Shown here one piece after another: positions 11,993-52,204 of a stretch of DNA of 64,000 bases. The stretch's first letter is position 1. Every line of letters starts with the position of its first letter. The notes beneath the pieces were generated by a model, which saw nothing but the letters and a program-made list of their open reading frames with translations, was not told the origin of the DNA and searched no databases. The stretch comes from Balanoglossus misakiensis (taxonomy: Eukaryota > Animalia > Hemichordata): assembly GCA_040954595.2 (NCBI GenBank), contig CM082597.2, forward strand, positions 912,886 through 976,885, given 5' to 3'. A program made the position numbers and the translations under genes.

Positions 11993-12163
11993 GTGAGTGT
12001 TTGAGCGTGTTTCCTCCAATGAGTTATAGCACATTTCTGACCCCTGCGCCAGTCACATAACTAAACCCGAAAGGCCATAGCCAGGCGCAGATTGACGGTG
12101 AAATGGAAGATGAAATCGTTAAAGAGCTTACTGCTTACATCAAATTTGTCTTTCTGGTTTCAG

Positions 12164-12511
12164 GGGCCGCGGAAATATGAGGATCCACCGTCGGCGCCAG
12201 ACGAGATGATTATAATCCAACTCTGCGAATCTGAATACAACGCGATCTGGTTGGCAATAATTTACTTCTACAAAGCCGGTTTGCTGCTTTTCGGTTCCTA
12301 TCTCGCTTGGGCAACCAGGAATGTCACCCTACCCTCTATGAATGACGCCAAGAGTATCGTCGTTAGCATTTACACCTGCGTCATATTGGCTGCCATAGCA
12401 ACGGGTCTGTCGGCAATACTGGTCACCTGGCCAAACGCCTGGTACGCATGTGTATCGGGTGCCATCCTTGTGTGCACAACGCAAGTGTTGTTGATGCAGA
12501 ATATCCCAAAG
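12164..12511 (+). CDS. GPR156: GPR156-like exon 5 (ECL2, TM5-7)
   Basis: Acceptor tttcag, donor gttagt. Encodes CESEYNAIWLAIIYFYKAGLLLFGSYLAWATRNVTLPSMNDAKSI...IPK, matching GABA-B TM5-7 motifs (YKxxLLxxG, TRxVxxPxxND, PK). 348 nt. Confidence 0.92.
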
Positions 12512-12731
12512 GTTAGTTCGAATACACTGAAGTAATGAACTCACCAACCCATCTATCCCTACCTCACTAATGACTGACTGACTAAATTGCATGATCACAA
12601 CTGAAATGTCAATATATTTTCCTTGGTGAACGGTGCTAATTACGGCTATTTTAGTCTTCGAATAATTATCGCCATTTATGCAAATAGTATTGATCTCCTG
12701 AGTGACTGACTAACCGTTATGGAAATTTCAG

Positions 12732-12887
12732 ATCTACGCCTGGAAAAACACCTCGTCTGCAGACCTGTCAAAATCGATTACGTCATCGTATTTAGCCTCG
12801 TCTCAGAACAGCTCGGTCGACAGAATTGAAGAGGAGTACTACATGTTGTCGGCAGAGAATACACAACTCAAGAAATCCTTAGCTGAG
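12732..12887 (+). CDS. GPR156: GPR156-like exon 6 (C-tail, start of coiled coil)
   Basis: Acceptor tttcag, donor gtcagt. Encodes IYAWK...RIEEEYYMLSAENTQLKKSLAE. 156 nt, phase 0/0. Confidence 0.85.
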
Positions 12888-13358
12888 GTCAGTTTGGCCA
12901 TCGTTTGAATGAACTAACAGGTTGGTGGAGGGTATGAAATAGTGCCCTCATGTGAGTAGAACTCGTTACAGCTTGTTGAATTTGGCGCCCGCAAGGGAAT
13001 GCGGAAATACTGTGGGAGTGGCCTGGTCTCTTGGTAAAGCTATCTCGTTCTGACAGTCAAGAGATGAGAAACACTCCTTGTGAACCCAATCGTCACGCGC
13101 AAGTCACAAGATGTTCTTCACGTGGACCTAAGTGCTATAAAACTCGCCTCTCCACTGCTAGTCACATGTGCAAGCGAAAGGCACAAGTGAAGAACCTCGA
13201 CTAATGCTTTTTTGGCCTTGGTCAGTTTTAAACAAATGTTTGATTTTGATCCTTCCGAATGGTATATCAATATTCTCCAGCATCTTGATTACTTATTCAC
13301 AGAATTATTTAAATGTTGGACTAGTTTAAATTGTATGGCGTAACTTTTTGTTTTACAG

Positions 13359-14237
13359 AAAGACGAAACTATTAAAACACTACAACAGCATGTCAGCACT
13401 GCCAAGGAAAAGCTCCTTCAAATTGAGATCGAACAGGAACAGAGACAAGACAGCGGATGTGACGCAGATATGTCGTCATCAAGCATGCAGGACGACAACG
13501 AACAAGGAATGGAAAGGAGTCAGAAAACTGACGCGCAGCCGCAGAGGCGGAATTCCAGAAGGAGGCTATCATGGGAGAAAATACAGAGTCTTGATTGGTT
13601 GATTGGCAGGCGGAGAGGCAGGGATAGAGACAGCGTGGCCAGTAAGCGAAGTTTAACGTCATTAAAAAGCTGGAAGCAATTCAAAGAAGCGCGAAATTCA
13701 ATCGCAGACGATTTACACAAGGCACACAACATCACTACGAATTTAAGACAATCAATATCACGTGACTTGAGTCGGTTAAGGCGAAGACCTGTGTCTGTGT
13801 ATACTAATGAGGAGATTGAGAGACAGCTTGCAGACAATCTGAGGAACTGTTACGGTCTGACCGAGGCTGATGCTGATTCTATGGTCAGTGCACCGTACAC
13901 TTGTACGTACGAAAATCCATCCTTCGTACGAGGATGCAACGCAGATGCCCCGGATGAGGACGACCTATACTGCAGTTGCAGCTGCGGACACCAACATAGC
14001 AGGACATCCAGTTTCCGGTCATACACCAGCAGAAATTCCTGTCGTTCAATTGGCAGTTGGACATCACGTGGCACTAGGAACTCCATCCCCCGACGCCACT
14101 CGTTGCCGAAAAAGTATCGCTTCGGCGAATCAGACACCGCGAGCGAGGACAAAATGGTGCGGGAGGTCGTGACCCCGGAAGTTGTGAAAAGTGCCGTCGC
14201 TATGACCAGACAGATTGGCACAGACACGTATGTGTGA
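13359..14237 (+). CDS. GPR156: GPR156-like terminal exon (coiled coil + long disordered tail); whole protein about 661 aa
   Basis: Acceptor ttttacag. KDETIKTLQQHVSTAKEKLLQIE continues the heptads and is in frame with the track ORF 13470-14237, ending in TGA. Confidence 0.85.
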   Translation, partial: KDETIKTLQQHVSTAKEKLLQIEIEQEQRQDSGCDADMSSSSMQDDNEQGMERSQKTDAQPQRRNSRRRLSWEKIQSLDWLIGRRRGRDRDSVASKRSLTSLKSWKQFKEARNSIADDLHKAHNITTNLRQSISRDLSRLRRRPVSVYTNEEIERQLADNLRNCYGLTEADADSMVSAPYTCTYENPSFVRGCNADAPDEDDLYCSCSCGHQHSRTSSFRSYTSRNSCRSIGSWTSRGTRNSIPRRHSLPKKYRFGESDTASEDKMVREVVTPEVVKSAVAMTRQIGTDTYV

Positions 14238-14725
14238 TGACATTGCTATGGAAACGTAAAAAACACAATCATGCGACTGCCACTTTTTTCAGGATAGACG
14301 TTCTGCTATCAATTTTACAACGAAGACAATTTCATACCTCCAGGAAAACTATGCATCAATCCAACTCCAACAATATATAATTTTTCGATACATTCTCTTG
14401 TATGTCCATATACGTAGTCCAAACTTTGAAACAATATTTATGCAAATATGATCACGATGTAAAAACCTAAAGACTTTGTATTTATGTACTGAACTTTGTA
14501 ATATATCTATTTTATATTTTCGAAAAGATACTTTATTCTCAGAGAAAATACACTTAAAACTAGACTGCTCCAGTTTTAATCTAAAGTACGAATATTTTAA
14601 ACCAACCGGCACTAACATATCCTGTTGTAGAACATAGGGATTATTTCCTCATACCAACACCAATCCAACAATTCATGGTTGCACAGTAAATAGGAAAAGG
14701 TCATTCGTTGAGAAAATTTATAATC

Positions 14726-14932
14726 AATAAAAAGCTATTTATGTTAATAAAATCGATATGCAAGTAACAATCTAAATGCCATTGACCTTTGTAATCTATG
14801 ATGAATACTATGATTTGACTCCGAACTTGTAACACGGCAAGACTTATAATTATTTAGGTTATCTGATAACCTGTATAAGTCTTATATGTAGTGAACAGAA
14901 GTACTTGAAGTACAGTCTGGTATGGAAATAAA
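14726..14932 (+). terminator. Candidate poly(A) signals of the GPR156-like gene
   Basis: AATAAA at 14726, 14746 and 14927 within an AT-rich 3' UTR. Confidence 0.45.
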
Positions 14933-16025
14933 CTTTCTGCTAGAAAGCGGTCATTTGTAAACATTGCACAACGAGCAGTGAGTTTATTACTAGTATTTCT
15001 CTCAGTCGACGCCTATACTGTTTAGACCTCAACGCGACCTTGGGTCAACAACTAAAAACAGCAGAATTCGATCATGTGATAACAGAGGGCGCTACTCAAC
15101 TCAACCACCTGTTTGATTGTATTCCACTCACGTTATACAAAAAAATCCCCTTTAGTAAATGTTATGAAGTTGAACGACTTTATCCCTGAGTCAGATTAAA
15201 GTCGTGTGAAAGTATTTTGGGAAGTAATTAGAGAGTTTTACAAACAAGAATAGAAACACGCGAACTATAATTCTAGTTAAAATGTTTACTAAATAAATAT
15301 TCTCCCAGTCAAACAAAATATACAAGTATGTATAGTCACCGTGACTTAAATTGAACAACATTTATCAAAAGATGTCTGATTGTCCAAGGAAGTGAATAAA
15401 TTATCTAGAAACTGCCAGATTGTCTCGGAACTGTCACTTCTCTCTTTCTCGATCGCTTACGAAAACAAAATGTCGAATGCATGGCAGTCTGCAAGTGAAA
15501 GCCTCTTGGGCTTTTTAAAAACCATTTTACGATTTTGTACGCATCAGAGTTTAACGACAACCAAGATGGCCTTAAACAAGATTAATAGCACACGGATTAA
15601 GATTTCTCAAAACATCAACGCATAACTTTGAAATCAGTGAAACAAATAATAAGATGATACAACAACCAACATTGTAAATGAGTTTGTTTTCATCTGACTT
15701 AAAAAACAACAGATATATCATAAAATTCATCTCCAAGTTCTCTCACAAAGCATAAAATCAGAAGATCTCTTGATTCGCGTTCCACTTTGGGAGTGCTGGG
15801 ATTTAATGAAATTGGCCTATCAGCAGGTACGTTCTTTGAGTACTAGGTAAGTAAAGTTAAAGTTGCGTTAAAAAGATTGTCAGGGGAAAGCAAATTGATA
15901 CCAAACTATTCCATGAGAAATTGCAGTATTTGACTATTTTAACCTCTAGGAATAAACTTTGAATAAAGATAATAGAGATCTGCCGTTACAGCTAAACTGT
16001 CTAACGTTATTCACAAATCATGACC

Positions 16026-19000
16026 TCAACAAAATATCGCGTTGTATTTACTTTCACGCCAAAAACGATACATCTGAGGAACCGTCAGAAATCGAGTCAC
16101 AAGAGAATTCTTGTAGTCACAACTTCCTCTGCCTCTGGCACTCAGATCAAAGCCCGCCACCTCAGTCGGAACAAGCTCCATTTTCTCCAAAAGAACGCCT
16201 ATATACACATCTTCCCACATGAGAGGGGGTGTTTCAAGAGCGGTGGAGTAGAGTTCTTTCACGACATCGAGAGACATAATATAAGCCGGGCCTTCCACGT
16301 AAGTTGGGAATCTTGTATGTGGCCATACTTCATTGGGCGTGTAGTACTCACTTTTAGAATCCCTGTTCGGCGCGTTACCACGGAGCACGCCCCCACCGAT
16401 GAACCGATTCCGCGGCGCAAACTCTGAGATGTATCTTACGATATTCTCATATTTCAAGAAAGTCCCGTCGTCCGTTCGCATGACGTAGGCAGCGTCGTTG
16501 CAGAATTTGGCTGCCCATTGCAACATGGCTATCGTCTTGAAAGTAGTGTACTGGGTACCGTCTTGAAAGTCGACCAAGACAATATCACTGAAGGAGGCGG
16601 ACTCCTTGTGAACCTCCGCCATATGTGATAAATTTGAAGTCTTTCCCAGAACGAAGAGATGTACGATTTTAATGTCCTCCTCGTGGTAAACTCGACCCCA
16701 GGTTTCGCGTATCGCTTTCCTTTCTTCGAAATTTCCTGGCAGACTGCCGATCAGAATGACAAACAATTCAGAACTTGGTGATTTCATTTTTGGACAGAAT
16801 TCCACTTGGTCTATCAAAATTTTGTACTCATTCGAACTTGTGACGTTCTCCTTGTAGTAAAATGGCGTCAAGTCTCTAGACTGTTGATCGTCGATGCAGA
16901 CGACATCCTTTTCGGCGTTAAGGCGGTACCAGTATCTGTACATATCGTGTGCCTGTACTTTGTGAGTGGCGATTGCTTTCCGAATTTCGCAGAGCGATCG
17001 GAAAACACCGGCGATATCAAACCGCGTGTCTCGAACAGGGTACACACCGATCTTTTGCAACAGAATACCGACATAAACGTCCTCGTTCACGAATCTTTTT
17101 GAATCAAACGAAGCTCTGTGAAGCGTTTGGGCGACATCTGAAGACATGAAATAGCAAGGACCCGCGTTGTATGGTGGGAAGGGACGATCAGGCCAAAGGT
17201 CAAGCGGGGTGTAGTTCTTGTGTTTCGGATTTCGTACAGCTGACTGTGCGTAATAAGTACGCCCCCATGAATATTCAGTAGCAGGGGCTTCGCGGAGCGC
17301 GGTGACGACATTTTCAATGTTCACTAATACGTCATCATCAACTTTCATGACGTATGAAGTCTGCCTGCAATGTTTGGTCACCCACTTCAACATCATGGCC
17401 GTCTTCAGCGTCAAGTTTGAATAGGTGTCATGGAAACTGCACTGGACGATGTCGCCATGATACTCGTTTTCCATAATCAGTTTTCGCTGGACATCACTGT
17501 CGTGCGTCTTGCCGATGAAGAACACGTGACTCATTGTAAAGTCTCCCCATTGGCGCTGCAACGCCCATGTTTCCCTGACGGATTTCCGGCGACCGAAATT
17601 TGCTGCCGAGGTCATCACCACAGCAACTAGGTCAAGTCGACCGCTAACATTCTGACACACGTTTGCTCCATCGATAACAAAGTCGTAATCGTTCGGTTTG
17701 ACTAAATTCTGGAAACAGGACACGTTCAAACTGGCTTGTAGTTTTTCATAACACTCGGTTATCGCCCGTGGACTATGGACGTTCCAGGTGAAGGAATTTC
17801 GCATGTAGCAAACATCCGGGACACCTGACACCGGATAAACGAGAAAGTCCGAATGCCGATGGGGGATAATCGATAATTCCCTTAGCAACAGCCCAAAGAA
17901 CACGTCTTCCCATGGAAACAGCTTGATGTATAGCGACGTCACATATGTTTGGTAGGCCACATCAGATGAAAACACATATCCCCTCCCCTCGGGATAGTTC
18001 GGGTACCTATCCTCGGGAAAGATTTCCTTCGGGGTGTAGAATGAGCTCTCAGGATTTCGAATTGGCCGAGATTCCTGCAAAACGTGTCCGATAACCAAAT
18101 TTGTTTCTTTCACAAAAGAGTTCGTTAAAAAGTTGACAATATTTGTCGTCTGCACGTAAGTCGTCACCCTTGTCTTCATGAAGTATTTGGCATTTTGGCA
18201 GTAGAGTGTGGCCCATTTCAGCGCCATGATGGTTTTCAAAGTCAAGTTGCCATAGCTACCGGTATCGACGAAGTCTTCCATAACGATGTCTCTATATCTG
18301 GAGTTCTCTCTCCGGATATAATCCTCGGTGAAACGTTTCTCCGATTCCTCAGGGGTTCCCATCAAGAAAACGTAGTCAACAAACACTTCGCCAATCTTGT
18401 GATCGTTCGCCCAAGATGACCGTATCGTGTGCCGGAAAGACTCTTCGTTCGGAGCGGTAACTATCAGAACAAAAAGTGTTAATTTATTCCCGTGCTTGGC
18501 ACACCTGTTCGGATGATTGATTACAAACTTGTAGTTATGTTTGTTGACAATTGTCCGGTTTGAAAATCTGCCGTTGAGCGTGACGTCAATTTCCCTCATC
18601 GGCGGATTGATCGGGACAAGGTCATCGTAAACCGGTTCTTCTGGTGGTTGGTTTTGTGTCTGGCAGTTCTCGAAAGTGCCATCCAGAATATTTCTACTGA
18701 TATACAGCATGGTTTGACTGGTGAATCCTCTCGTTGCTAGGACCGAGTGTAAACCACAGATGCCATTTTCGTCGTTTGTCACGCTGAGGGCGTTAGAATC
18801 GAAGGCGTCGTCGTGAACCGTCGCGATACTGAGCTGTCTGAGTACAGCACCAAAGTGAACATCCGGGAATTTAAACAGTTTGCCGCGTTTTGATGCCTCC
18901 ACCATTTTGCCGACAACATCCATTGACATGATACAAAATGGCGGACTGCATGATGGAGGGTAGAAGTCCTCAGGCCATTCTGTCCTTGACACGTAATATG

Positions 19001-22000
19001 GACTTTCAGGGTTTCTTTCCGGCTTCACCGACTTTAAAACTTGTCCTGTGACGTAACCAGAATCGGGTGACTCCACAAGGTGCGCGACAACCGCCTCGAT
19101 GTTCACAAACACGTCATCTTCAACTTTCATGACGTATTTCGCAGATTTGCAGTGATTATAAACCCACTCGTATGCCTTCACGTGCATAAGCGTGTTGTTG
19201 TGATTTTCATAAAACCTGGACAGCATGACGTCACGATAAAGTTCATCCTCGTGGAGGAGAGTGGAATGGAAACTTTTTCGCGGGTGATCGCTGATGACAA
19301 ACTGTGCCAAGATTCTCCTACCCACGGCCAGTTCTTTATTTGCCCATACGAAACGCGAGTAACGTCTGTTGTCATACTGGCCTGCCTTAGTCATCACGAG
19401 TATAACTAAAAACACCGGACTTCCCCGCGATTCGTGGTACTCACAACGAGGGTGACTTGTCCAAAAATTGTCGTCCGCGAGAATATCGTCTTTTCCTGGA
19501 ACGGCAAAGCTGTTAGCGCCCACCGGTGGGTTGATGAACTTGGGTCGAATTTTGTCCAAATACGGACTAGCGCAGCTATCTTTATTGATGTTCTCTTGCA
19601 GTAAGGTCCAGTACTTTCGATACATGGGTGCCGTAAAATGGTGCGATGCAATGGCGGCATGTAGGGAACACGGAGTGCGGTAAATGCCGTAAAGGTCGTA
19701 ATGGATGTGAGGATATGGCGCAACGTTGAGTTTATTCACAAGATGTCCAACGTAGACGTCCTCCCATTTAAATATTCTCACTCTCTTCGACATTTCATAA
19801 GCTCTGGTCACGACATCCATAGACATGACGTAAGACGGTCCTGAAATGTATGGTGGGTACATTCTACTCGGCCAAATGTCACGTGGGGTGTACCATTTAT
19901 AAGTTTCTGTGTGTGACGGCCCAGTGCCAATTCTCACCTCGCCTAGATACAAATCCTTCCGCGGAGCATCTTCTAAATACTCTGCCAGATTGTTGTAGTT
20001 CAAAAACACGTCATCGTCAACTTTTGTAAAGTAAGCCGCATTGGTACATCGATGGGACACCCACTGTAGCATGGTCAAAGTTTTCAACACCAGATGTTCG
20101 TACGATTCCTGGAAATTGTATTGGATAATGTCGCCATACTTTTTGTTTTCTGATTCAATTTTCCTCTGAACGATGTCATCTTTTGGCATGCCGACGAAAA
20201 ATAAAGTTTCGATTCTGTAGTTCGGCAAGCTTTTGTCGTACATTCCCCAAGTCTGCCGTATGGCTTTGCGTACATGAACATTGGATGGGTTGGTCATAAC
20301 ACAGACAACAATAAATATCTCATCTTTTTTACCGTCCGTTTTCGCGCATTTTTCGGGATGATCCAAAACAAGGAAAGGTATAGTACCGTTCGCTTTAACA
20401 TCCATGCCTATAACTTGGCCCTGGTCTATCACAATATTGTCAACATGTTCAGGGTCCGGGGACGAGGCTCCTTCGCAGACGACAAATTCTCCCCATTCCA
20501 CAAGCTCTCTCCAAAATTGGTACATTTTGTCTTCATGCACCCAATGTGTGGTCACGACTTCTTTTAGCTCACACAACGAGCGTTTCTTCCCGAAGCTGTC
20601 AAAACCGGGATGGTGAATCGGCTCAACGTTGATATTTTCCAAATTGATTCCAAGATAAACATCTTCAAAGCGGAAAAGTTTGATTCTCAGAGCGGACAAA
20701 CAGACGTCCTTCGCGACGTCATAGCTCATGACGTAACTGGGGCCATTTGGGTAGGGAGGGTAGGTATCATACGGCCATTCCTCTTTTGTCACAAACCACT
20801 TCTTGTATTTCGGATCTCGCAGTGGCTTCGAATCTTTGTGAACATAAGCAAGTACATAACGAGATCTCGGCGCCTTGATGAGAATACTAATGAGATTATG
20901 TAAATTAATGAAAACGTCATCATCAACTTTCATGACGTACCTGGCATTGGGACAATAGAGGGTCGCCCATTTCAACAACATGATCGTTTTCAGAGTTAGA
21001 TTTTGATAATTGTCCATCATATCAACGACGACAATATCGTCAAACTTCTTACTTTCATCCTCTATTTGCCGATCTGTGGATGATGATGTAGTTCGTCCGA
21101 CAAGAAAGATTTGAACAATCCTCTTTCCTAGAAATTCACTGCGCTTTCCTCTTGTGTTTCGGATGACCTCTCGCTCTTTATACTTAGTGGCACCAGAGGG
21201 CGTTATCAGCAACAAAAACACCTCCTGGCCAAACTTCTCAGGATTGTCGTCCAGAGTACAGATGGTTGGAAAATTCACCGGAAAGGAGTAGTTGAAATCG
21301 TTCACAACTTTGTCCAGACTGGCCGCCTTTCTATACATGGAGGACCACAAAGCATTGTCTGAGTTCGACCTATCGCAAAGTGCGCCATCAAGAGTTCGCA
21401 AACCATGCCAATATCGTTCCAACATATCGTCATCTTCTTCAAATTTTCCGGAGACTAACGCCGTTCGAAGGTCACACATTTTTCGACGGCTTCCGTGGAT
21501 ATCAAAGTTGACATTGTTCGTTATTGATATCTGCAGTCGTTCCAAAATAATCCCGATGTACACGTCTTCAAAACGAAATGTTCGGATTGTCAGCGCTTCG
21601 GTTGTACCACGAATAACAACATCTCCAGAAAGCAGGTAAGTAGGTCCTTCCATATAGGCTGGGTAGGTCGCTTTGGCCCACTGGTCGGTCGGCACATACC
21701 ACCGACTGTTGGGATTTCGAACGGGACCTGTACCAATCCGTGCCCGGCCAGTAGCATAGTTCGTTTTCGGTGCGTGTGACAGATGGTCTAATAAATTCTC
21801 CTTGAGTACAATTGTCCGAACGTCTGTTTTGAGAAGATACTGCAAATTGTCACAATGGCGTTTCACCCAATATAACATGGAAATCGTTTTCAGCGTGTCG
21901 TTTTCAGGCGAGTCCAGGAAATCCCCTTGCACAATATCACGGTATTCTGAACTTTCCATTAACACCGATTCCTGTACACTGTTCGCGTTTGAAGAACCGA

Positions 22001-22502
22001 TCATGAACAACACAATAACGTCTTCACTATCGATGAAATCCCGCATCCAGGTCTCGCGCACAGTATTCCGCAAAGCGCCCTCTTCCGGCAAGGAAACCAC
22101 AAAAACGACCAAAGACACCGATTCGGTCCGTGAGCATCTTTGGTCCGAGTTGATAAGAAAAAATTCCAAGTTTTCATTCACATAAAATGAAAAATTACTA
22201 ACTGTGTACTTTAAATTCTGTAACTGTGTAGTCCTGTTGAGTAGATTCCGATGTTTGGAACCTCCTTCGATAACAATATTGCGGTGTTCAGTTAAACTTC
22301 TTGTAGTCGGTATGTTCCGTTTTTCAAACGTCCTAACCAGAGGTCGTTGCCATGGGTACGGAATATCACTAGGTCGGTGGCCGCCGGACAAAGAATTGGT
22401 CCAATAGAGAAGCACCAGAGAATTGAACGCGGAGATCGCGATCACCAGCAGTAGATAGCGCCTTCCCAACTGACTTATCCGACGCAGAAAGCTCGTTGCC
22501 AT
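16026..22502 (-). CDS. 2158-aa type II membrane protein with seven tandem GT31 (Galactosyl_T, B3GALT/B3GNT-like) domains, single coding exon
   Basis: Uninterrupted 6477-nt ORF with an N-terminal signal-anchor (YLLLVIAISAFNSLVLLYW). Seven repeats of about 290 aa carry R..IR.TW, NLTLKT, K.DDD, YPPY..G..Y and EDVY.G motifs or recognisable variants. Approximate spans: D1 22140-21375, D2 21260-20475, D3 20350-19570, D4 19450-18665, D5 18505-17715, D6 17660-16895, D7 16800-16029. Confidence 0.95.
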   Translation of the reverse strand: MATSFLRRISQLGRRYLLLVIAISAFNSLVLLYWTNSLSGGHRPSDIPYPWQRPLVRTFEKRNIPTTRSLTEHRNIVIEGGSKHRNLLNRTTQLQNLKYTVSNFSFYVNENLEFFLINSDQRCSRTESVSLVVFVVSLPEEGALRNTVRETWMRDFIDSEDVIVLFMIGSSNANSVQESVLMESSEYRDIVQGDFLDSPENDTLKTISMLYWVKRHCDNLQYLLKTDVRTIVLKENLLDHLSHAPKTNYATGRARIGTGPVRNPNSRWYVPTDQWAKATYPAYMEGPTYLLSGDVVIRGTTEALTIRTFRFEDVYIGIILERLQISITNNVNFDIHGSRRKMCDLRTALVSGKFEEDDDMLERYWHGLRTLDGALCDRSNSDNALWSSMYRKAASLDKVVNDFNYSFPVNFPTICTLDDNPEKFGQEVFLLLITPSGATKYKEREVIRNTRGKRSEFLGKRIVQIFLVGRTTSSSTDRQIEDESKKFDDIVVVDMMDNYQNLTLKTIMLLKWATLYCPNARYVMKVDDDVFINLHNLISILIKAPRSRYVLAYVHKDSKPLRDPKYKKWFVTKEEWPYDTYPPYPNGPSYVMSYDVAKDVCLSALRIKLFRFEDVYLGINLENINVEPIHHPGFDSFGKKRSLCELKEVVTTHWVHEDKMYQFWRELVEWGEFVVCEGASSPDPEHVDNIVIDQGQVIGMDVKANGTIPFLVLDHPEKCAKTDGKKDEIFIVVCVMTNPSNVHVRKAIRQTWGMYDKSLPNYRIETLFFVGMPKDDIVQRKIESENKKYGDIIQYNFQESYEHLVLKTLTMLQWVSHRCTNAAYFTKVDDDVFLNYNNLAEYLEDAPRKDLYLGEVRIGTGPSHTETYKWYTPRDIWPSRMYPPYISGPSYVMSMDVVTRAYEMSKRVRIFKWEDVYVGHLVNKLNVAPYPHIHYDLYGIYRTPCSLHAAIASHHFTAPMYRKYWTLLQENINKDSCASPYLDKIRPKFINPPVGANSFAVPGKDDILADDNFWTSHPRCEYHESRGSPVFLVILVMTKAGQYDNRRYSRFVWANKELAVGRRILAQFVISDHPRKSFHSTLLHEDELYRDVMLSRFYENHNNTLMHVKAYEWVYNHCKSAKYVMKVEDDVFVNIEAVVAHLVESPDSGYVTGQVLKSVKPERNPESPYYVSRTEWPEDFYPPSCSPPFCIMSMDVVGKMVEASKRGKLFKFPDVHFGAVLRQLSIATVHDDAFDSNALSVTNDENGICGLHSVLATRGFTSQTMLYISRNILDGTFENCQTQNQPPEEPVYDDLVPINPPMREIDVTLNGRFSNRTIVNKHNYKFVINHPNRCAKHGNKLTLFVLIVTAPNEESFRHTIRSSWANDHKIGEVFVDYVFLMGTPEESEKRFTEDYIRRENSRYRDIVMEDFVDTGSYGNLTLKTIMALKWATLYCQNAKYFMKTRVTTYVQTTNIVNFLTNSFVKETNLVIGHVLQESRPIRNPESSFYTPKEIFPEDRYPNYPEGRGYVFSSDVAYQTYVTSLYIKLFPWEDVFFGLLLRELSIIPHRHSDFLVYPVSGVPDVCYMRNSFTWNVHSPRAITECYEKLQASLNVSCFQNLVKPNDYDFVIDGANVCQNVSGRLDLVAVVMTSAANFGRRKSVRETWALQRQWGDFTMSHVFFIGKTHDSDVQRKLIMENEYHGDIVQCSFHDTYSNLTLKTAMMLKWVTKHCRQTSYVMKVDDDVLVNIENVVTALREAPATEYSWGRTYYAQSAVRNPKHKNYTPLDLWPDRPFPPYNAGPCYFMSSDVAQTLHRASFDSKRFVNEDVYVGILLQKIGVYPVRDTRFDIAGVFRSLCEIRKAIATHKVQAHDMYRYWYRLNAEKDVVCIDDQQSRDLTPFYYKENVTSSNEYKILIDQVEFCPKMKSPSSELFVILIGSLPGNFEERKAIRETWGRVYHEEDIKIVHLFVLGKTSNLSHMAEVHKESASFSDIVLVDFQDGTQYTTFKTIAMLQWAAKFCNDAAYVMRTDDGTFLKYENIVRYISEFAPRNRFIGGGVLRGNAPNRDSKSEYYTPNEVWPHTRFPTYVEGPAYIMSLDVVKELYSTALETPPLMWEDVYIGVLLEKMELVPTEVAGFDLSARGRGSCDYKNSLVTRFLTVPQMYRFWRESKYNAIFC

Positions 22503-28372: not shown

Positions 28373-30064
28373 ATGCGGATTAAAGTTTTCTGGCTGCTGA
28401 CGGGTGTGAGTCTGTGTGTCGTGATAACTCTTCTCGTGGAATTCTTCATGCTGACGACACAAGGGATAGCTTTCTCGAAGGAGGTACGACTGCTTTGGGA
28501 AAGTGATGTTTTCAAACAGAGGGAGCTATTAGATAACGAGATTTCGACAAACGACTTGGAAGAAGATTCTGATATCGCCGACATCGTTGATGACAGCGCC
28601 CTCAGAGATAGTCTTTTGGAAATGCTGATGTCAGGTTTCGCCACCAACGTTCAAGATGGTGAAAACTTTCGTCACGCAATGACGTATGCTGATGGTGAAG
28701 AATGCGAGTGTGAGGGCGAGTTTGTCTACGGACCGTTGAGTGACAAGGATAAACAGCGCCGAGATGACAAGATGGAAATTTGGGAAGATTTGCAGTATCC
28801 TGCCAAGGAACCAATTGTCATGTGCAACGCAATGTCTCCGATCACGTACGTTGGGGGTGGTATAACAGTTGAGCCACTGCACCGTGTCAGATTAGTGGGA
28901 ATCTCCATAGACGAATTATTCTGGCGTTTATTTCTGCAAAATGGCGGTTTTGACATAACTTTCACATCATTAAAATCATATGGTGTAATGACCGTACACA
29001 AGCCAAAAAACATGAGTGAATATGCCAAAGTTCAAGGGAATGGCAGCCCGAAATTAACGATTTCAGTAAGTGGGGCTGTCGAACTAAACGACCTGAACCT
29101 TTTGCTAAAACAAATCCAATATCAGAGTACATTATATGACATTGAACTTCGGGAAATCGTCTCTATTCGTCTGCAAGGTTTTGAGGTCAAAGTCCACGTC
29201 CATATCTATCGCCAACCGTTTCCACGTCTGTATAACACTTCCCCCGAAGACAAAGACATCAGCCGAAAAGTAACCATTGTCACAAAAACATTCGAACGTT
29301 ATGATGTTGTCCGGAAGTTGATAGAAAGTATCAGAGAATTTTACCCGAAAATCAACATCCTCATCGCTGATGATTCGAAGGAACCCGAAAAACTGGAGGG
29401 AAAGCGAATAAAACATTACATCATGCCGTTCGCCAGAGGCTGGTTTGCTGGTAGAAATCTTCTTGTCAGTCAGGTGAGGACCAAATATTTCGTCTGGGTT
29501 GATGACGACTTCATTTTCACCAAGAACACCAAATTGGAAAGATTTCTGGAAAAGTTCGAGGCTCCTAATTCCAATCTAGACTTGATCGCCGGACGGTACG
29601 AAGACAAGCAAGGGAAACTGATCGACAGGAATTTTGATCACGTTATCGACAGACAACGAGGTAAAGATGGCTACTGCATGACTCGCCGGAAAGGGAATTA
29701 TGGCCCCGTTGAGGGCTTCCCACAATGCAATCGCTCGGATGAGGTGACGAATTTCTTCATGGCAAAGACCCTGTCTGTTCGTGATATTGGATTTGATCCT
29801 TCGACGGTTTTGAGCAGGGTTGCTCACTACGAGTTTTTCTGGGATGGTCTTGGTAGGCTGCGTGTAGCCAGCTGTAATGACGTCACAGTCCAACATTTTT
29901 TCACTCACGACAACAGCGATATATATGAACAGTACAGGCGTGGAGAAAACGACGATATTCACTATTACGAAAGACTGCTATATTCAATATATAAAAATAA
30001 TATGAAATGTCTCACGGGAATGGACAGAAATATACAAGATTTAGCCAAATTCCAAGCGAATTAG
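28373..30064 (+). CDS. B4GALNT1: Beta-1,4-N-acetylgalactosaminyltransferase (GT12, B4GALNT1/2-like), 563 aa, intronless CDS
   Basis: N-terminal TM anchor. Motifs VTIVTKTFERY, IADDS, HYIMPFARGWFAGRNLLVSQVRTKYFVWVDDDF, NFFMA and LSRVAHYEFFWDGLGRLRVASC closely match vertebrate B4GALNT1/2. First ATG is 28373 (the track ORF starts at a TTG). Cannot separate B4GALNT1 from B4GALNT2. Confidence 0.92.
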   Translation: MRIKVFWLLTGVSLCVVITLLVEFFMLTTQGIAFSKEVRLLWESDVFKQRELLDNEISTNDLEEDSDIADIVDDSALRDSLLEMLMSGFATNVQDGENFRHAMTYADGEECECEGEFVYGPLSDKDKQRRDDKMEIWEDLQYPAKEPIVMCNAMSPITYVGGGITVEPLHRVRLVGISIDELFWRLFLQNGGFDITFTSLKSYGVMTVHKPKNMSEYAKVQGNGSPKLTISVSGAVELNDLNLLLKQIQYQSTLYDIELREIVSIRLQGFEVKVHVHIYRQPFPRLYNTSPEDKDISRKVTIVTKTFERYDVVRKLIESIREFYPKINILIADDSKEPEKLEGKRIKHYIMPFARGWFAGRNLLVSQVRTKYFVWVDDDFIFTKNTKLERFLEKFEAPNSNLDLIAGRYEDKQGKLIDRNFDHVIDRQRGKDGYCMTRRKGNYGPVEGFPQCNRSDEVTNFFMAKTLSVRDIGFDPSTVLSRVAHYEFFWDGLGRLRVASCNDVTVQHFFTHDNSDIYEQYRRGENDDIHYYERLLYSIYKNNMKCLTGMDRNIQDLAKFQAN

Positions 30065-48646: not shown

Positions 48647-50135
48647 GGACACTTTCTCTGTCAAATCGCCGACGATATTAACCAGTGGTTTGACACCCAA
48701 TTCTCAAATCTCTGATGGGATGGCGACTCAAGAAAATTCAAACATCTTTCAAAGTCCAAGGGAATCTGGATCACGGATTGATGATATTCTTCGGGAAACA
48801 GATATGTCGGACATAACTGGGCATGCGCGCCATTTTGACATCGACTTGGAAGTGGCTGAAATTACGGGTGCATTTAAACCGAGCGGGTTTCGCCTCGGTA
48901 ACATGGCGGCAAGATTCAAATCAGGTTATCTCATTGAAATAGATGACGGTTTCGACAGGTCGTTACCGTTCCGCCATTTTAGGAATCGCTATGGGAACGC
49001 TGCCTCGCTGGTGAACACGCCCGTTGCTAAGGGATTCTTCCCGATTAAAGACAGTTGTGGGAAACATAGTGACGAAAAGCGGGGAAATGTTACAAGCCCG
49101 TCGATTCTGAAACCAAAAGCCAGGAGGATTCTTTCTCCGTTGCCTGTATCTCTTAAGGACAAAATGGCGGTGGATAAAATTATTGGACGAGCCCAGCCCG
49201 TGGGAACTACGTCACCGCACGGTCACGTGACAGTTGTGCCTTGTCATGGGACTCAGGGAAGCGATCACGACAGTGGTCGTTCATCAGGACAATCTTCGGA
49301 GGAAAAAACTTCCCTCGATGAAGAACCTTACTCAATCAGCGATGGGAAGACTATCTCATCTCCAAAACTTGTGAGAAAACAAACGCGACAGAAAAGAGCC
49401 TCAAAGGGGGCGAGAAAAGAGAATCTCGCGAGATTCTTCAGGTCTTTCAAATTGTCGTCGTCGAGTTCGCAAAGTTCTGACCACAGCAGAACAGACTCCA
49501 TTGATTCGTCTGTATTGTCGGATGTCGATGAAGAAACAGCGCCGCCTGTGGAAGAACCGAATACTGACCATATCCTACCTCAGGAAATCGCCTGTGCAAC
49601 AAACTTTGAAAAACAGGATTCACTAACCTCGACTCCGCCACCAACAAGGGCGAAGAAAGTGACATTTGACCTCTCCGCAACTGTTGAAATGTGCGACGAC
49701 GTGAATTATGAAAGCGATGGATTTTTCTCGGATGATGATGACGATGACTCGAGTTCATGCACCGGAAGTACGTCATCGTATTCATCATGGTCGTCATCAT
49801 GCTCCACTTGTTGTTGTTCATGTTGCTCGTGTTCTTCTTGTTCAACGTGTTACTCAGAAGTGACGGTTACCACACTACAGACAGAGATGGACGACGAAGA
49901 AATCTTCTTCCTGCCCGACGATTTCATCGCAGAAGACGAGGATGCGTTGGCCAATCCGACGATCCGTTACAGCCCACCCAGACTTTACACCAGAGAGCAG
50001 AACTGCGCACTCAACGACATAATGCAGAAAAATGACTGCTTGGCCACAAAAGTTGTACCGCCCCCTAAAGAGGTCACGGTAAAACCTGAAGCACCAACTA
50101 GAAAAACTGTTGTAGTTTCTACTGTTTACCTATAA
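48647..50135 (+). CDS. Uncharacterised, largely disordered Ser/acidic protein (terminal or sole coding exon; first ATG 48720, about 471 aa) with SILK and RVxF motifs and a Cys-rich cluster
   Basis: Acceptor ttacag ends at 48646 and the frame is open from there to TAA 50135. Downstream AATAAA at 50739. No folded domain recognised. Confidence 0.75.
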
Positions 50136-51157: not shown

Positions 51158-52058
51158 TCAGTTTGTTCCATCTGGTTTGTTTTTCCGTACACTGTAACCC
51201 CTGTACGAAGACTGGATCTTTGTCGCTGCTTCCTTTTCCTTTGAGACCTGGTTTCGAATTTTGAATCCACGAAAAGATGCTTGAATCCTCGTCGCCGCTT
51301 CTGATTGGTCTTGCTTGGTTCGCCTCGTTTTGAATCCCCTATATCCAGCCTGGATTGTGGTTGCTGCCTTGGATTGGTGTTTCAAGTGTTGTCTGCTCAT
51401 CATGCCTCGATATCCCGCTTGGATTTTCGCTGCAGCTGTGTTTTCTTTAGACTTGTCAGCACTCTCGGAGCTCAATGCGTGGTGCTCTCTTGTTTGGTAG
51501 CCGCGATGCCCAGCTTGGGTTTTATTCACCGCGGTGTCTTCTTTCATATTTGCTTCAAGTTTCATTTTCGATTCTCTCCTCACAAGCATTCCACGGTAAC
51601 CTGCTTGTATTTTGGCTGCCGCCTTCTGTGCGTCATAATAGTCAATCTCCTCTCCCGTAAAAGTAGATTCGGAATCAACTGTTTCTGACGACAATCCGCT
51701 GGAACTGATCATGCGCATTTCCTCTAGGTGGCGCTCATCATCCGAAGATTGTCTGTAGAGTATAACATCCCCTTCCGGGTCAGTTGCACCCGTAACGACT
51801 GAATCAGTTCCTAAAAAGCGATCGTCTTCTAACTTCTGGTCTTCAGTGTCGGAACTATCTGAAGAATATTCCGAGTATTTTTGATAGTTGCGAGATTTCT
51901 TCGGACGCTGACGTTGTTGTCTGTTAGCGAGTGGTGTTCGGGGTCCCAATTCGGCCATTTCTAATTCACTATAATCCACCAGAGATCCCTCGCTCGATAT
52001 ACTGACAATATCGGTCGAATATCGTTCGTAACGAATGCCTTTCGGTCGCTTTGGCGTA
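51158..52058 (-). CDS. SPA17-like RIIa/IQ protein, terminal exon (6 IQ motifs, one degenerate)
   Basis: Acceptor ttttatattgccag. Phase-2 join is in frame with track ORF 51158-51979. Repeated AA.KIQA.YRG...R motifs. Confidence 0.85.
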
Positions 52059-52204
52059 CTGGCAATATAAAATCAGGCAGAGAACTCGAGTTTGTACCAG
52101 AACGTAAAGGTTTGACACCGAAAATACCAGCGTGCAAATAAGCTAAAGTTGCCAAAAGCCAACAGCGACTAGGTATAGGCATGGTCACTTATAGAGGAAC
52201 CGTG

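Follow-up and report, generated by a model that had tools for sequence, protein, structure and literature searches.

Does a chain of seven glycosyltransferase domains behind one membrane anchor work as seven enzymes in a row? The question arises from a 64,000-nucleotide (nt) stretch of the genome of the acorn worm Balanoglossus misakiensis (GCA_040954595.2, contig CM082597.2, positions 912,886 to 976,885; referred to as the window), in which one frame at positions 16026..22502 of the minus strand encodes a 2158-amino-acid (aa) protein with seven domains of glycosyltransferase family 31 (GT31). A sequence-only reading of this locus had proposed a Golgi assembly-line or processive enzyme that builds a repeating or multi-step glycan, such as a mucus glycan. 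Our analysis upheld the architecture and replaced the seven-enzyme reading with a mixed design of putatively active domains and pseudo-domains; the protein represents a real, conserved and apparently undescribed family of acorn worms.

The frame contains no stops and begins at an ATG in good context; the chance occurrence of such a stop-free frame at the given base composition is about 1e-58. A Pfam search of the 2158-aa chain returned seven stretches of PF01762 (Galactosyl_T), with 951 bits against a curated cut-off of 23 (E 2e-289), and found no other glycosyltransferase family. Four cysteines are invariant across all seven domains, three of which match the disulfide cysteines of B3GALT5 in the alignment of the first domain, D1 (pairs from PMC11969544). 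Based on a hydropathy scan, the whole protein has only one hydrophobic stretch, which covers residues 14-36 approximately and follows a short basic tail (22395..22463, minus strand), a predicted type II membrane anchor in the layout of short tail, one anchor and stem. Because pairwise identity among the domains is 24-34% and DNA self-matches are only short (the longest 96 nt at 73%), the repeats reflect no assembly collapse and no duplication of recent date. On all these points, namely the uninterrupted frame, the one N-terminal membrane segment, the seven cysteine-bracketed repeats, the expected count of seven profile hits and the strong divergence, the sequence-only reading was confirmed. 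Two further claims held in part. The motifs at the DxD position recur from D1 to D7 at 21824, 20924, 20018, 19121, 18170, 17339 and 16472, with a spacing of 0.83-0.95 kb rather than the 0.85-0.95 kb given, but only D2, D3 and D6 read DDD, so that seven DxD motifs are not present. Single-exon status applies to the coding frame only; a candidate splice acceptor, read by eye, sits roughly 105 nt before the ATG.

We then compared catalytic residues domain by domain, in a table numbered on B3GALT5 and mapped through solved-structure alignments, with residue roles taken from B3GALT5 (PMC11969544) and B3GNT2 (PMC7948508). The rows were 13 family members, comprising six proteins of the seven-domain type and seven four-domain proteins; near-duplicates (P0014, P0019) and partial records (P0009, P0011, P0018, P0021, P0024) were left out. 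The full set was defined as both DxD aspartates, the xED aspartate and the metal-binding C-His. Rows spanning all four columns numbered 11 for D2, 8 for D4 and 5 for D7, and 13, 5 or 6 for the other domains as in the counts below. Among single-domain controls, 70 of 80 carried the full set (70 of 83 if three rows later removed, partial ones or family members, are counted in).

Three domains of the window protein are intact. D3 (19563..20372, minus strand) reads DDD and retains the full set in 11 of 13 members, representing a conserved catalytic-type core across the whole family. D6 (16887..17684, minus strand), also DDD, retains it in 6/6, and its acceptor tryptophan (W198 of B3GALT5) is replaced by asparagine in 6/6. 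D2 (20463..21284, minus strand) has DDD, xED and the C-His, and is intact only in the subfamily of the window protein (4/13). In motif I, RxxxRx(T/S)W, both arginines are retained in all seven domains and the tryptophan in six, D2 having arginine instead. The three intact domains differ from one another at conserved acceptor-site positions.

The remaining four domains, all on the minus strand, are degenerate, and none carries the full set in any member. D1 (21363..22160; 0/13) reads D-V-R at the DxD position and lacks the C-His and the Tyr128 equivalent, with Asp158 and His285 absent throughout (0/13 each), while the xED and the acceptor-side aromatics are retained (Tyr210 and Phe213 11/12 each, Asp243 10/13). 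Its replacements vary across relatives: R, K, S, T, N or A at Asp158, and G, T, S, P, A or C at His285. We considered whether D1 had swapped both metal ligands for basic residues, and rejected this idea, as the lysine sits one place past the histidine position and the replacements vary. D5 (17703..18530; 0/5) reads RVT, with the first DxD aspartate replaced by arginine in 4/5; it lacks the C-His (Asp156 and His285 0/5 each) and retains the uracil-side residues, the acceptor-side residues and the xED in 5/5 (Trp198, Tyr210, Phe213, Glu242 and Asp243 positions 5/5 each, with aromatic swaps allowed). D7 (16029..16826; 0/6) reads DDG and lacks the C-His and the Tyr128 and Lys197 equivalents (Asp158 0/6, His285 0/5, Lys197 0/6), with the xED mostly retained (Tyr210 and Phe213 6/6 each, Asp243 5/6). 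Across the family, both D1 and D7 lack Tyr128 and mostly Lys197. D4 (18648..19469; 0/13) is the most degenerate, with EDD at the DxD position, PDV at the xED and no C-His. Around the DxD region, D4, in other respects the domain that has diverged most, nevertheless matches D6 over 42 nt with 90% identity (19096-19137 and 17314-17355), a possible trace of local gene conversion.

With intact domains denoted as A and degenerate ones as x, the order is x-A-A-x-x-A-x in the window protein and the relatives nearest to it, x-x-A-x-x-A-x in the second seven-domain subfamily, and x-x-A-x in the four-domain proteins. In two families of acorn worms, it is the position of a domain that sets this pattern. 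The degenerate domains do not look like decaying remnants: compared with paralogue P0003, they are 34-46% identical, against 46-57% for the intact domains and 12% for the stem; five of the six linkers reach 10-33%, and a linker of 6 aa reaches 50%. Identity this far above the stem points to ongoing selection on the degenerate domains.

These results do not agree with an assembly line of seven stations. In all relatives examined, the ligands for metal and diphosphate are missing from D1, D4, D5 and D7, which leaves no more than three domains with the look of standard enzymes, and a single one in the four-domain relatives. A multi-step scheme on a smaller scale may still apply, since D2, D3 and D6 differ at conserved acceptor-site positions.

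To place the window protein among its relatives, we searched with the full-length chain and recovered 2 proteins among 3228 candidates, both from Ptychodera flava and both named 'uncharacterized'. P. flava XP_070547541/2 is 73% identical across 100% of the length and XP_070542326-8 is 44% identical. The two closest P. flava genes each list the same protein under two and three RefSeq accessions, respectively; such shared-protein accessions usually reflect RNA-supported transcript variants. By Pfam count, a third P. flava protein has seven domains (XP_070547766, 2099 aa, 30% identity), as does XP_006822772.1 of Saccoglossus kowalevskii (2089 aa, 29%), whereas S. kowalevskii XP_002742263.1 (1620 aa, 43%) has six and lacks D5. 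Judged by identity, the window protein is probably nearer to Ptychodera than to Saccoglossus. The family is present in RefSeq and unannotated there. Because full-length relatives occur in both P. flava and S. kowalevskii, the seven-domain layout cannot be put down to misassembly. The multi-GT31 records of P. flava P0002, P0007, P0019, P0021 and P0159 each lie on a contig with a length of 14,237,801 bp, which suggests that the family is concentrated on one P. flava chromosome.

A query with D1-D3 returned 10 proteins of 5661 candidates. In a profile search across 1.84 billion representatives, 17,070 matches were obtained, and relatives were drawn from the best 150, of which 20 were named. Seven four-domain proteins of 1223-1329 aa were identified (four in P. 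flava, two in S. kowalevskii and one in Glandiceps talaboti), beginning with an anchor-like N-terminus wherever the start was seen. No chain among the matches listed exceeded seven domains, where cluster representatives may hide longer members and no dedicated search was made above 3777 aa. The lineages of Ptychodera and Saccoglossus split about 373 million years ago (Ma; PMC4729200), and a chain of seven domains in which position dictates which are intact and which degenerate, occurring on both sides of that divergence, would count as the largest repeat of GT31 among those recovered here.

We further constructed a domain tree with IQ-TREE from 65 rows, chosen from 278 and comprising the domains of nine family proteins and 15 outside domains. 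The domains clustered by position, with support of 98/88 for D1, 97/90 for D3, 99/95 for D4, 100/97 for D5, 100/98 for D6 and 95/82 for D7. D2 formed no single positional group, and the intact type of D2 joined three stand-alone enzymes (96/92). Since D3 and D6 were sisters (96/89), as were D1 and D7 (95/92), internal duplication appears to have contributed to building the chain, and not just fusion. The proposal that tandem paralogues had been fused is thus retained as an old GT31 fusion behind one anchor within the hemichordate lineage, and not as the sole process. The pairs D3+D6 and D1+D7 are those expected from a strict period-3 origin (D1-3, D4-6, D7), but the other pairs that it implies, D2+D5 and D4+D1, were not recovered.

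In a tree of D1-D4 (13 of 16 alignment rows), the four- and seven-domain proteins were interleaved. Grouping the seven-domain proteins as one clade was rejected by the approximately unbiased (AU) test (p-AU 1.6e-5, with the group named after the domain trees had been seen and under LG+G4 without a mixture). Since the two seven-domain subfamilies have D5, D6 and D7 that correspond to each other as orthologues, position for position, the simplest account would be one early seven-domain ancestor followed by three truncations after D4 on the unrooted tree. Alternatively, the D5-D7 cassette may have been gained twice. On the tree this saves one step, but the searches turned up no free D5-D7 gene.

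What, then, might the mixed chain do? It is somewhat probable, in our judgement, that D2, D3 and D6 are metal-dependent beta-1,3-galactosyltransferases or N-acetylgalactosaminyltransferases and that D1, D4, D5 and D7 are non-catalytic and hold or position the acceptor. The 2158-aa protein would sit in the Golgi as a type II protein with its domains in the lumen, given the type II layout of GT31 enzymes. D3 and D6, together with D2 in this subfamily, would transfer galactose (Gal) or N-acetylgalactosamine (GalNAc) in beta-1,3 linkage with Mn2+: their motifs are intact, they carry xED and not the xDD of B3GNT2, and the closest solved structure is that of B3GALT5. D1, D4, D5 and D7 would be inactive because their metal ligands have been lost. 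D1, D5 and D7 could hold or position a glycan acceptor, as their acceptor-side residues are retained and B3GLCT provides a precedent, while D4 would more probably serve as a scaffold because most of its xED is also lost. The working unit may thus be an active domain flanked by pseudo-domains, x-x-A-x or x-(A or x)-A-x-x-A-x, and the likeliest guess for the product is a Gal-beta-1,3 glycan that is repeated or carries several branches. The analysis yielded nothing in favour of the mucus glycan suggested by the sequence-only reading.

Several observations weigh against this account. Loss of the DxD or C-His does not equal inactivity, as GT14 and some GT6 enzymes are active without the DxD and several families replace the C-His (PMC7185993). 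The residues retained on the acceptor side (the YPPY loop and the xED helix) may have been kept for folding alone, and D4 retains them poorly (Asp243 6/9, Glu242 1/9). The labels active and inactive also appear not to be clean, given the exceptions in D3 (C-His absent in P0003, DDE in P0017) and the arginine in motif I of D2. In addition, the table covers 13 family members from three named species and the window.

Structure prediction bears on whether the domains pack together. An AlphaFold2 model of residues 105-1290 (D1-D4, 16 rows) gave a predicted local distance difference test (pLDDT) score of 83.6 and a predicted template modelling (pTM) score of 0.68. All four domains took on one and the same fold, and confidence was lowest at the D3-D4 linker. 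Foldseek matched this model best to B3GALT5 (8zwp; E 5e-25, TM 0.90 on the target), in agreement with a GT-A fold like that of B3GALT5 and B3GNT2. As a rough expectation, pTM would be 0.68-0.72 if three of the four domains were mutually fixed and 0.31-0.35 if they were free beads; the value obtained is a hint that three of four are placed relative to one another. On the opposite side, this argument is indirect and cannot say which domains pack, and the D4-D7 model (9 rows), in which the order of helices and strands is the same as in D1-D4, reached only pLDDT 65 and pTM 0.34 with no domain packing, the alignment being too shallow to judge.

The packing hint would also suit an alternative in which the degenerate domains bind no glycan themselves and serve as scaffolds, spacers or in-built chaperones that stabilise, activate or position D3 and D6, which is possible, if on the unlikely side. 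COSMC for T-synthase and CHPF for CHSY are GT31 precedents, D4 lacks the donor features and most xED features, and, since B3GNT2 is a dimer (PMC7948508), fused copies could replace dimer partners. However, D1, D5 and D7 retain motif I, the xED and the acceptor-side aromatics, whereas COSMC has lost both DxD and xED, and D5 retains position-specific residues such as the arginine for Asp156 in 4/5.

We consider it improbable that most domains are active after all, with the degenerate ones metal-independent or using another donor and each adding a different sugar or linkage. Metal-independent GT-A enzymes do exist (PMC7185993), the catalytic base is retained in D1, D5 and D7, D5 combines the arginine at the donor-facing first aspartate with uracil-side residues in 5/5, and the fixed Trp-to-Asn change of D6 implies that the intact domains differ in their acceptor sites. 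Yet the replacements at the metal positions vary within a domain class, where a replacement mechanism would need conservation; the losses of Tyr128 and Lys197 in D1 and D7 and the degeneracy of D2 in most paralogues point the same way, and a DxD triple mutant of mouse B3GALT1 is inactive (cited in PMC8022947). Finally, an artefact or neutral accident (misassembly, or read-through of tandem genes with decaying extra domains) is scarcely credible and already largely refuted, because, while the locus is known from genomic sequence alone and some relatives in the databases are broken up or have been re-annotated as shorter proteins (P0014 versus P0157, P0046 versus P0173), P. flava and S. kowalevskii have colinear full-length proteins across the split of ~373 Ma (PMC4729200), at 73%, 44% and 30% identity in the former and 29% in the latter (43% for its six-domain model), DNA self-similarity is low, and the degenerate domains are conserved far above the linkers.

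With respect to the genomic surroundings, a B4GALNT1-like (GM2 synthase-like) gene of a single frame (28373-30064, plus strand, 563 aa) lies head to head with the seven-domain gene at a distance of 5.9 kb. Its best P. flava match (64%) and the seven-domain orthologue lie on contigs of equal length, 14,237,801 bp, and its best Glandiceps match is on a contig of the same size as that of a D2-D3-like fragment; the pairing in relatives therefore amounts at most to a shared chromosome. Because B4GALNT1-like genes are very numerous, the family being strongly expanded in acorn worms, functional coupling of the two genes is only a lead. A more elaborate scheme, which we regard as doubtful, would thread two or three beta-1,3 sites of different acceptor specificity between four lectin-like GT31 stations and hand the glycan along one chain, with D5 possibly metal-independent and using another donor, and perhaps with the B4GALNT1-like neighbour yielding a Gal-beta-1,3-GalNAc-beta-1,4 repeat.

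Beyond the stop of the seven-domain gene, two AATAAA hexamers (14533..14988, minus strand, about 1.0 and 1.5 kb away) match the consensus of polyadenylation signals and are candidates for this role. Pieces of a class C G-protein-coupled receptor at 12065-14237 (plus strand; 7tm_3 match 12065-12532) probably make up the final exons of a gene that runs towards the 3' end of the seven-domain gene. Elsewhere, an open frame at 51158-52072 (minus strand) with five passing IQ calmodulin-binding stretches is likely an exon of a larger gene, and a 471-aa open frame at 48720-50135 (plus strand) had no Pfam match. A six-frame profile search found no further GT31 piece in the 64-kb window.

Repetition of GT31 domains is also seen outside acorn worms. 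Other multi-GT31 chains (P0016, P0030, P0020/P0160 and P0025) comprise one of Strigamia with six domains, one of the dinoflagellate Polykrikos with five, and two three-domain types. The Strigamia gene model has domains that are similar to each other and mostly intact, and the Polykrikos chain is a transcript. Where placed in the tree (P0030 was left out), the domains of such chains fell outside the acorn worm groups, suggesting that GT31 repetition arose more than once. The seven-domain position code was found only in acorn worms among the matches listed. Echinoderms have B3GNT-like proteins made of two GT31 domains, the N-terminal one degenerate and the C-terminal one intact, parallel to the acorn worm design, but with B3GNT-type motifs, two domains only and a separate branch in a FastTree tree. 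They were found in Holothuria, Antedon, Anneissia, Diadema and Amphiura (P0023, P0027, P0032, P0035, P0038, P0070); one cluster had 13 members, 12 of them only on Logan contigs of 2.5-3.0 kb. Together, these proteins offer a natural series of one, two, four and seven domains for probing the roles of pseudo-glycosyltransferase domains, and the same series bears on how single-step beta-1,3-transferases might acquire processivity or channelling.

That the architecture had not been functionally characterised, as the sequence-only reading assumed, is consistent with the literature searched, in which we found neither a characterisation nor a description of the seven-domain family; supplements and most subscription journals lay outside this search, and members of the family may be listed in the supplements of PMC4729200 and PMC8022947. 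The main texts of two hemichordate genome papers (PMC4729200, PMC11175523; supplements outside the search) mention no glycosyl- or galactosyltransferases. The GT31 family survey describes one Galactosyl_T domain per chain against the seven found here, and its section 7 includes neither a repeated Galactosyl_T architecture nor the echinoderm two-domain architecture (PMC8022947).

Among known systems, human B3GALT5 (8zwp) was the best solved-structure match by sequence for the whole protein and for the D1, D6 and D7 queries. The cysteine pattern, the xED motif and the type II layout are shared with B3GALT5 and the B3GALT1/2/5 group, whereas B3GALT5 has one domain rather than seven, four of which lack metal ligands here, and the donor and acceptor of the acorn worm protein are predicted only. 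D2, D3 and D6 carry the GT31 motif set of DxD, xED and C-His and D1, D4, D5 and D7 do not, so the latter would be members of the GT31 fold and not standard GT31 enzymes. COSMC/C1GALT1 and CHPF/CHSY are GT31 pseudoenzyme partnerships (PMC7185993, PMC8022947) in which non-catalytic folds accompany active ones, as here, but on separate chains; unlike COSMC, D1, D5 and D7 retain the xED. The polymerases LARGE1/2 and CHSY1/3 also have several GT-A domains per chain, but theirs are two domains from different families and of different specificities (PMC13597200), whereas here all are GT31 and known from sequence alone. Of about 220 human glycosyltransferase genes, just nine encode a pair of GT-A domains, and in B3GLCT alone do both belong to GT31 (PMC13597200). 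In B3GLCT, and by prediction here, an inactive domain without the C-His stands beside an active one in tandem on the same chain, and this extra GT-A domain is essential for acceptor binding (PMC13597200), a role that is demonstrated there and inferred here. B3GLCT differs in that it works in the endoplasmic reticulum, belongs to the Fringe-related branch and has a single site on its two domains, whereas the acorn worm protein has seven Galactosyl_T-type domains with two or three intact sites; the Fringe profile PF02434 scored 46 bits on the whole protein with 0 passing stretches, against 7 for PF01762. By analogy, the seven-domain protein is best read as a much larger version of the active-plus-inactive pair of B3GLCT.

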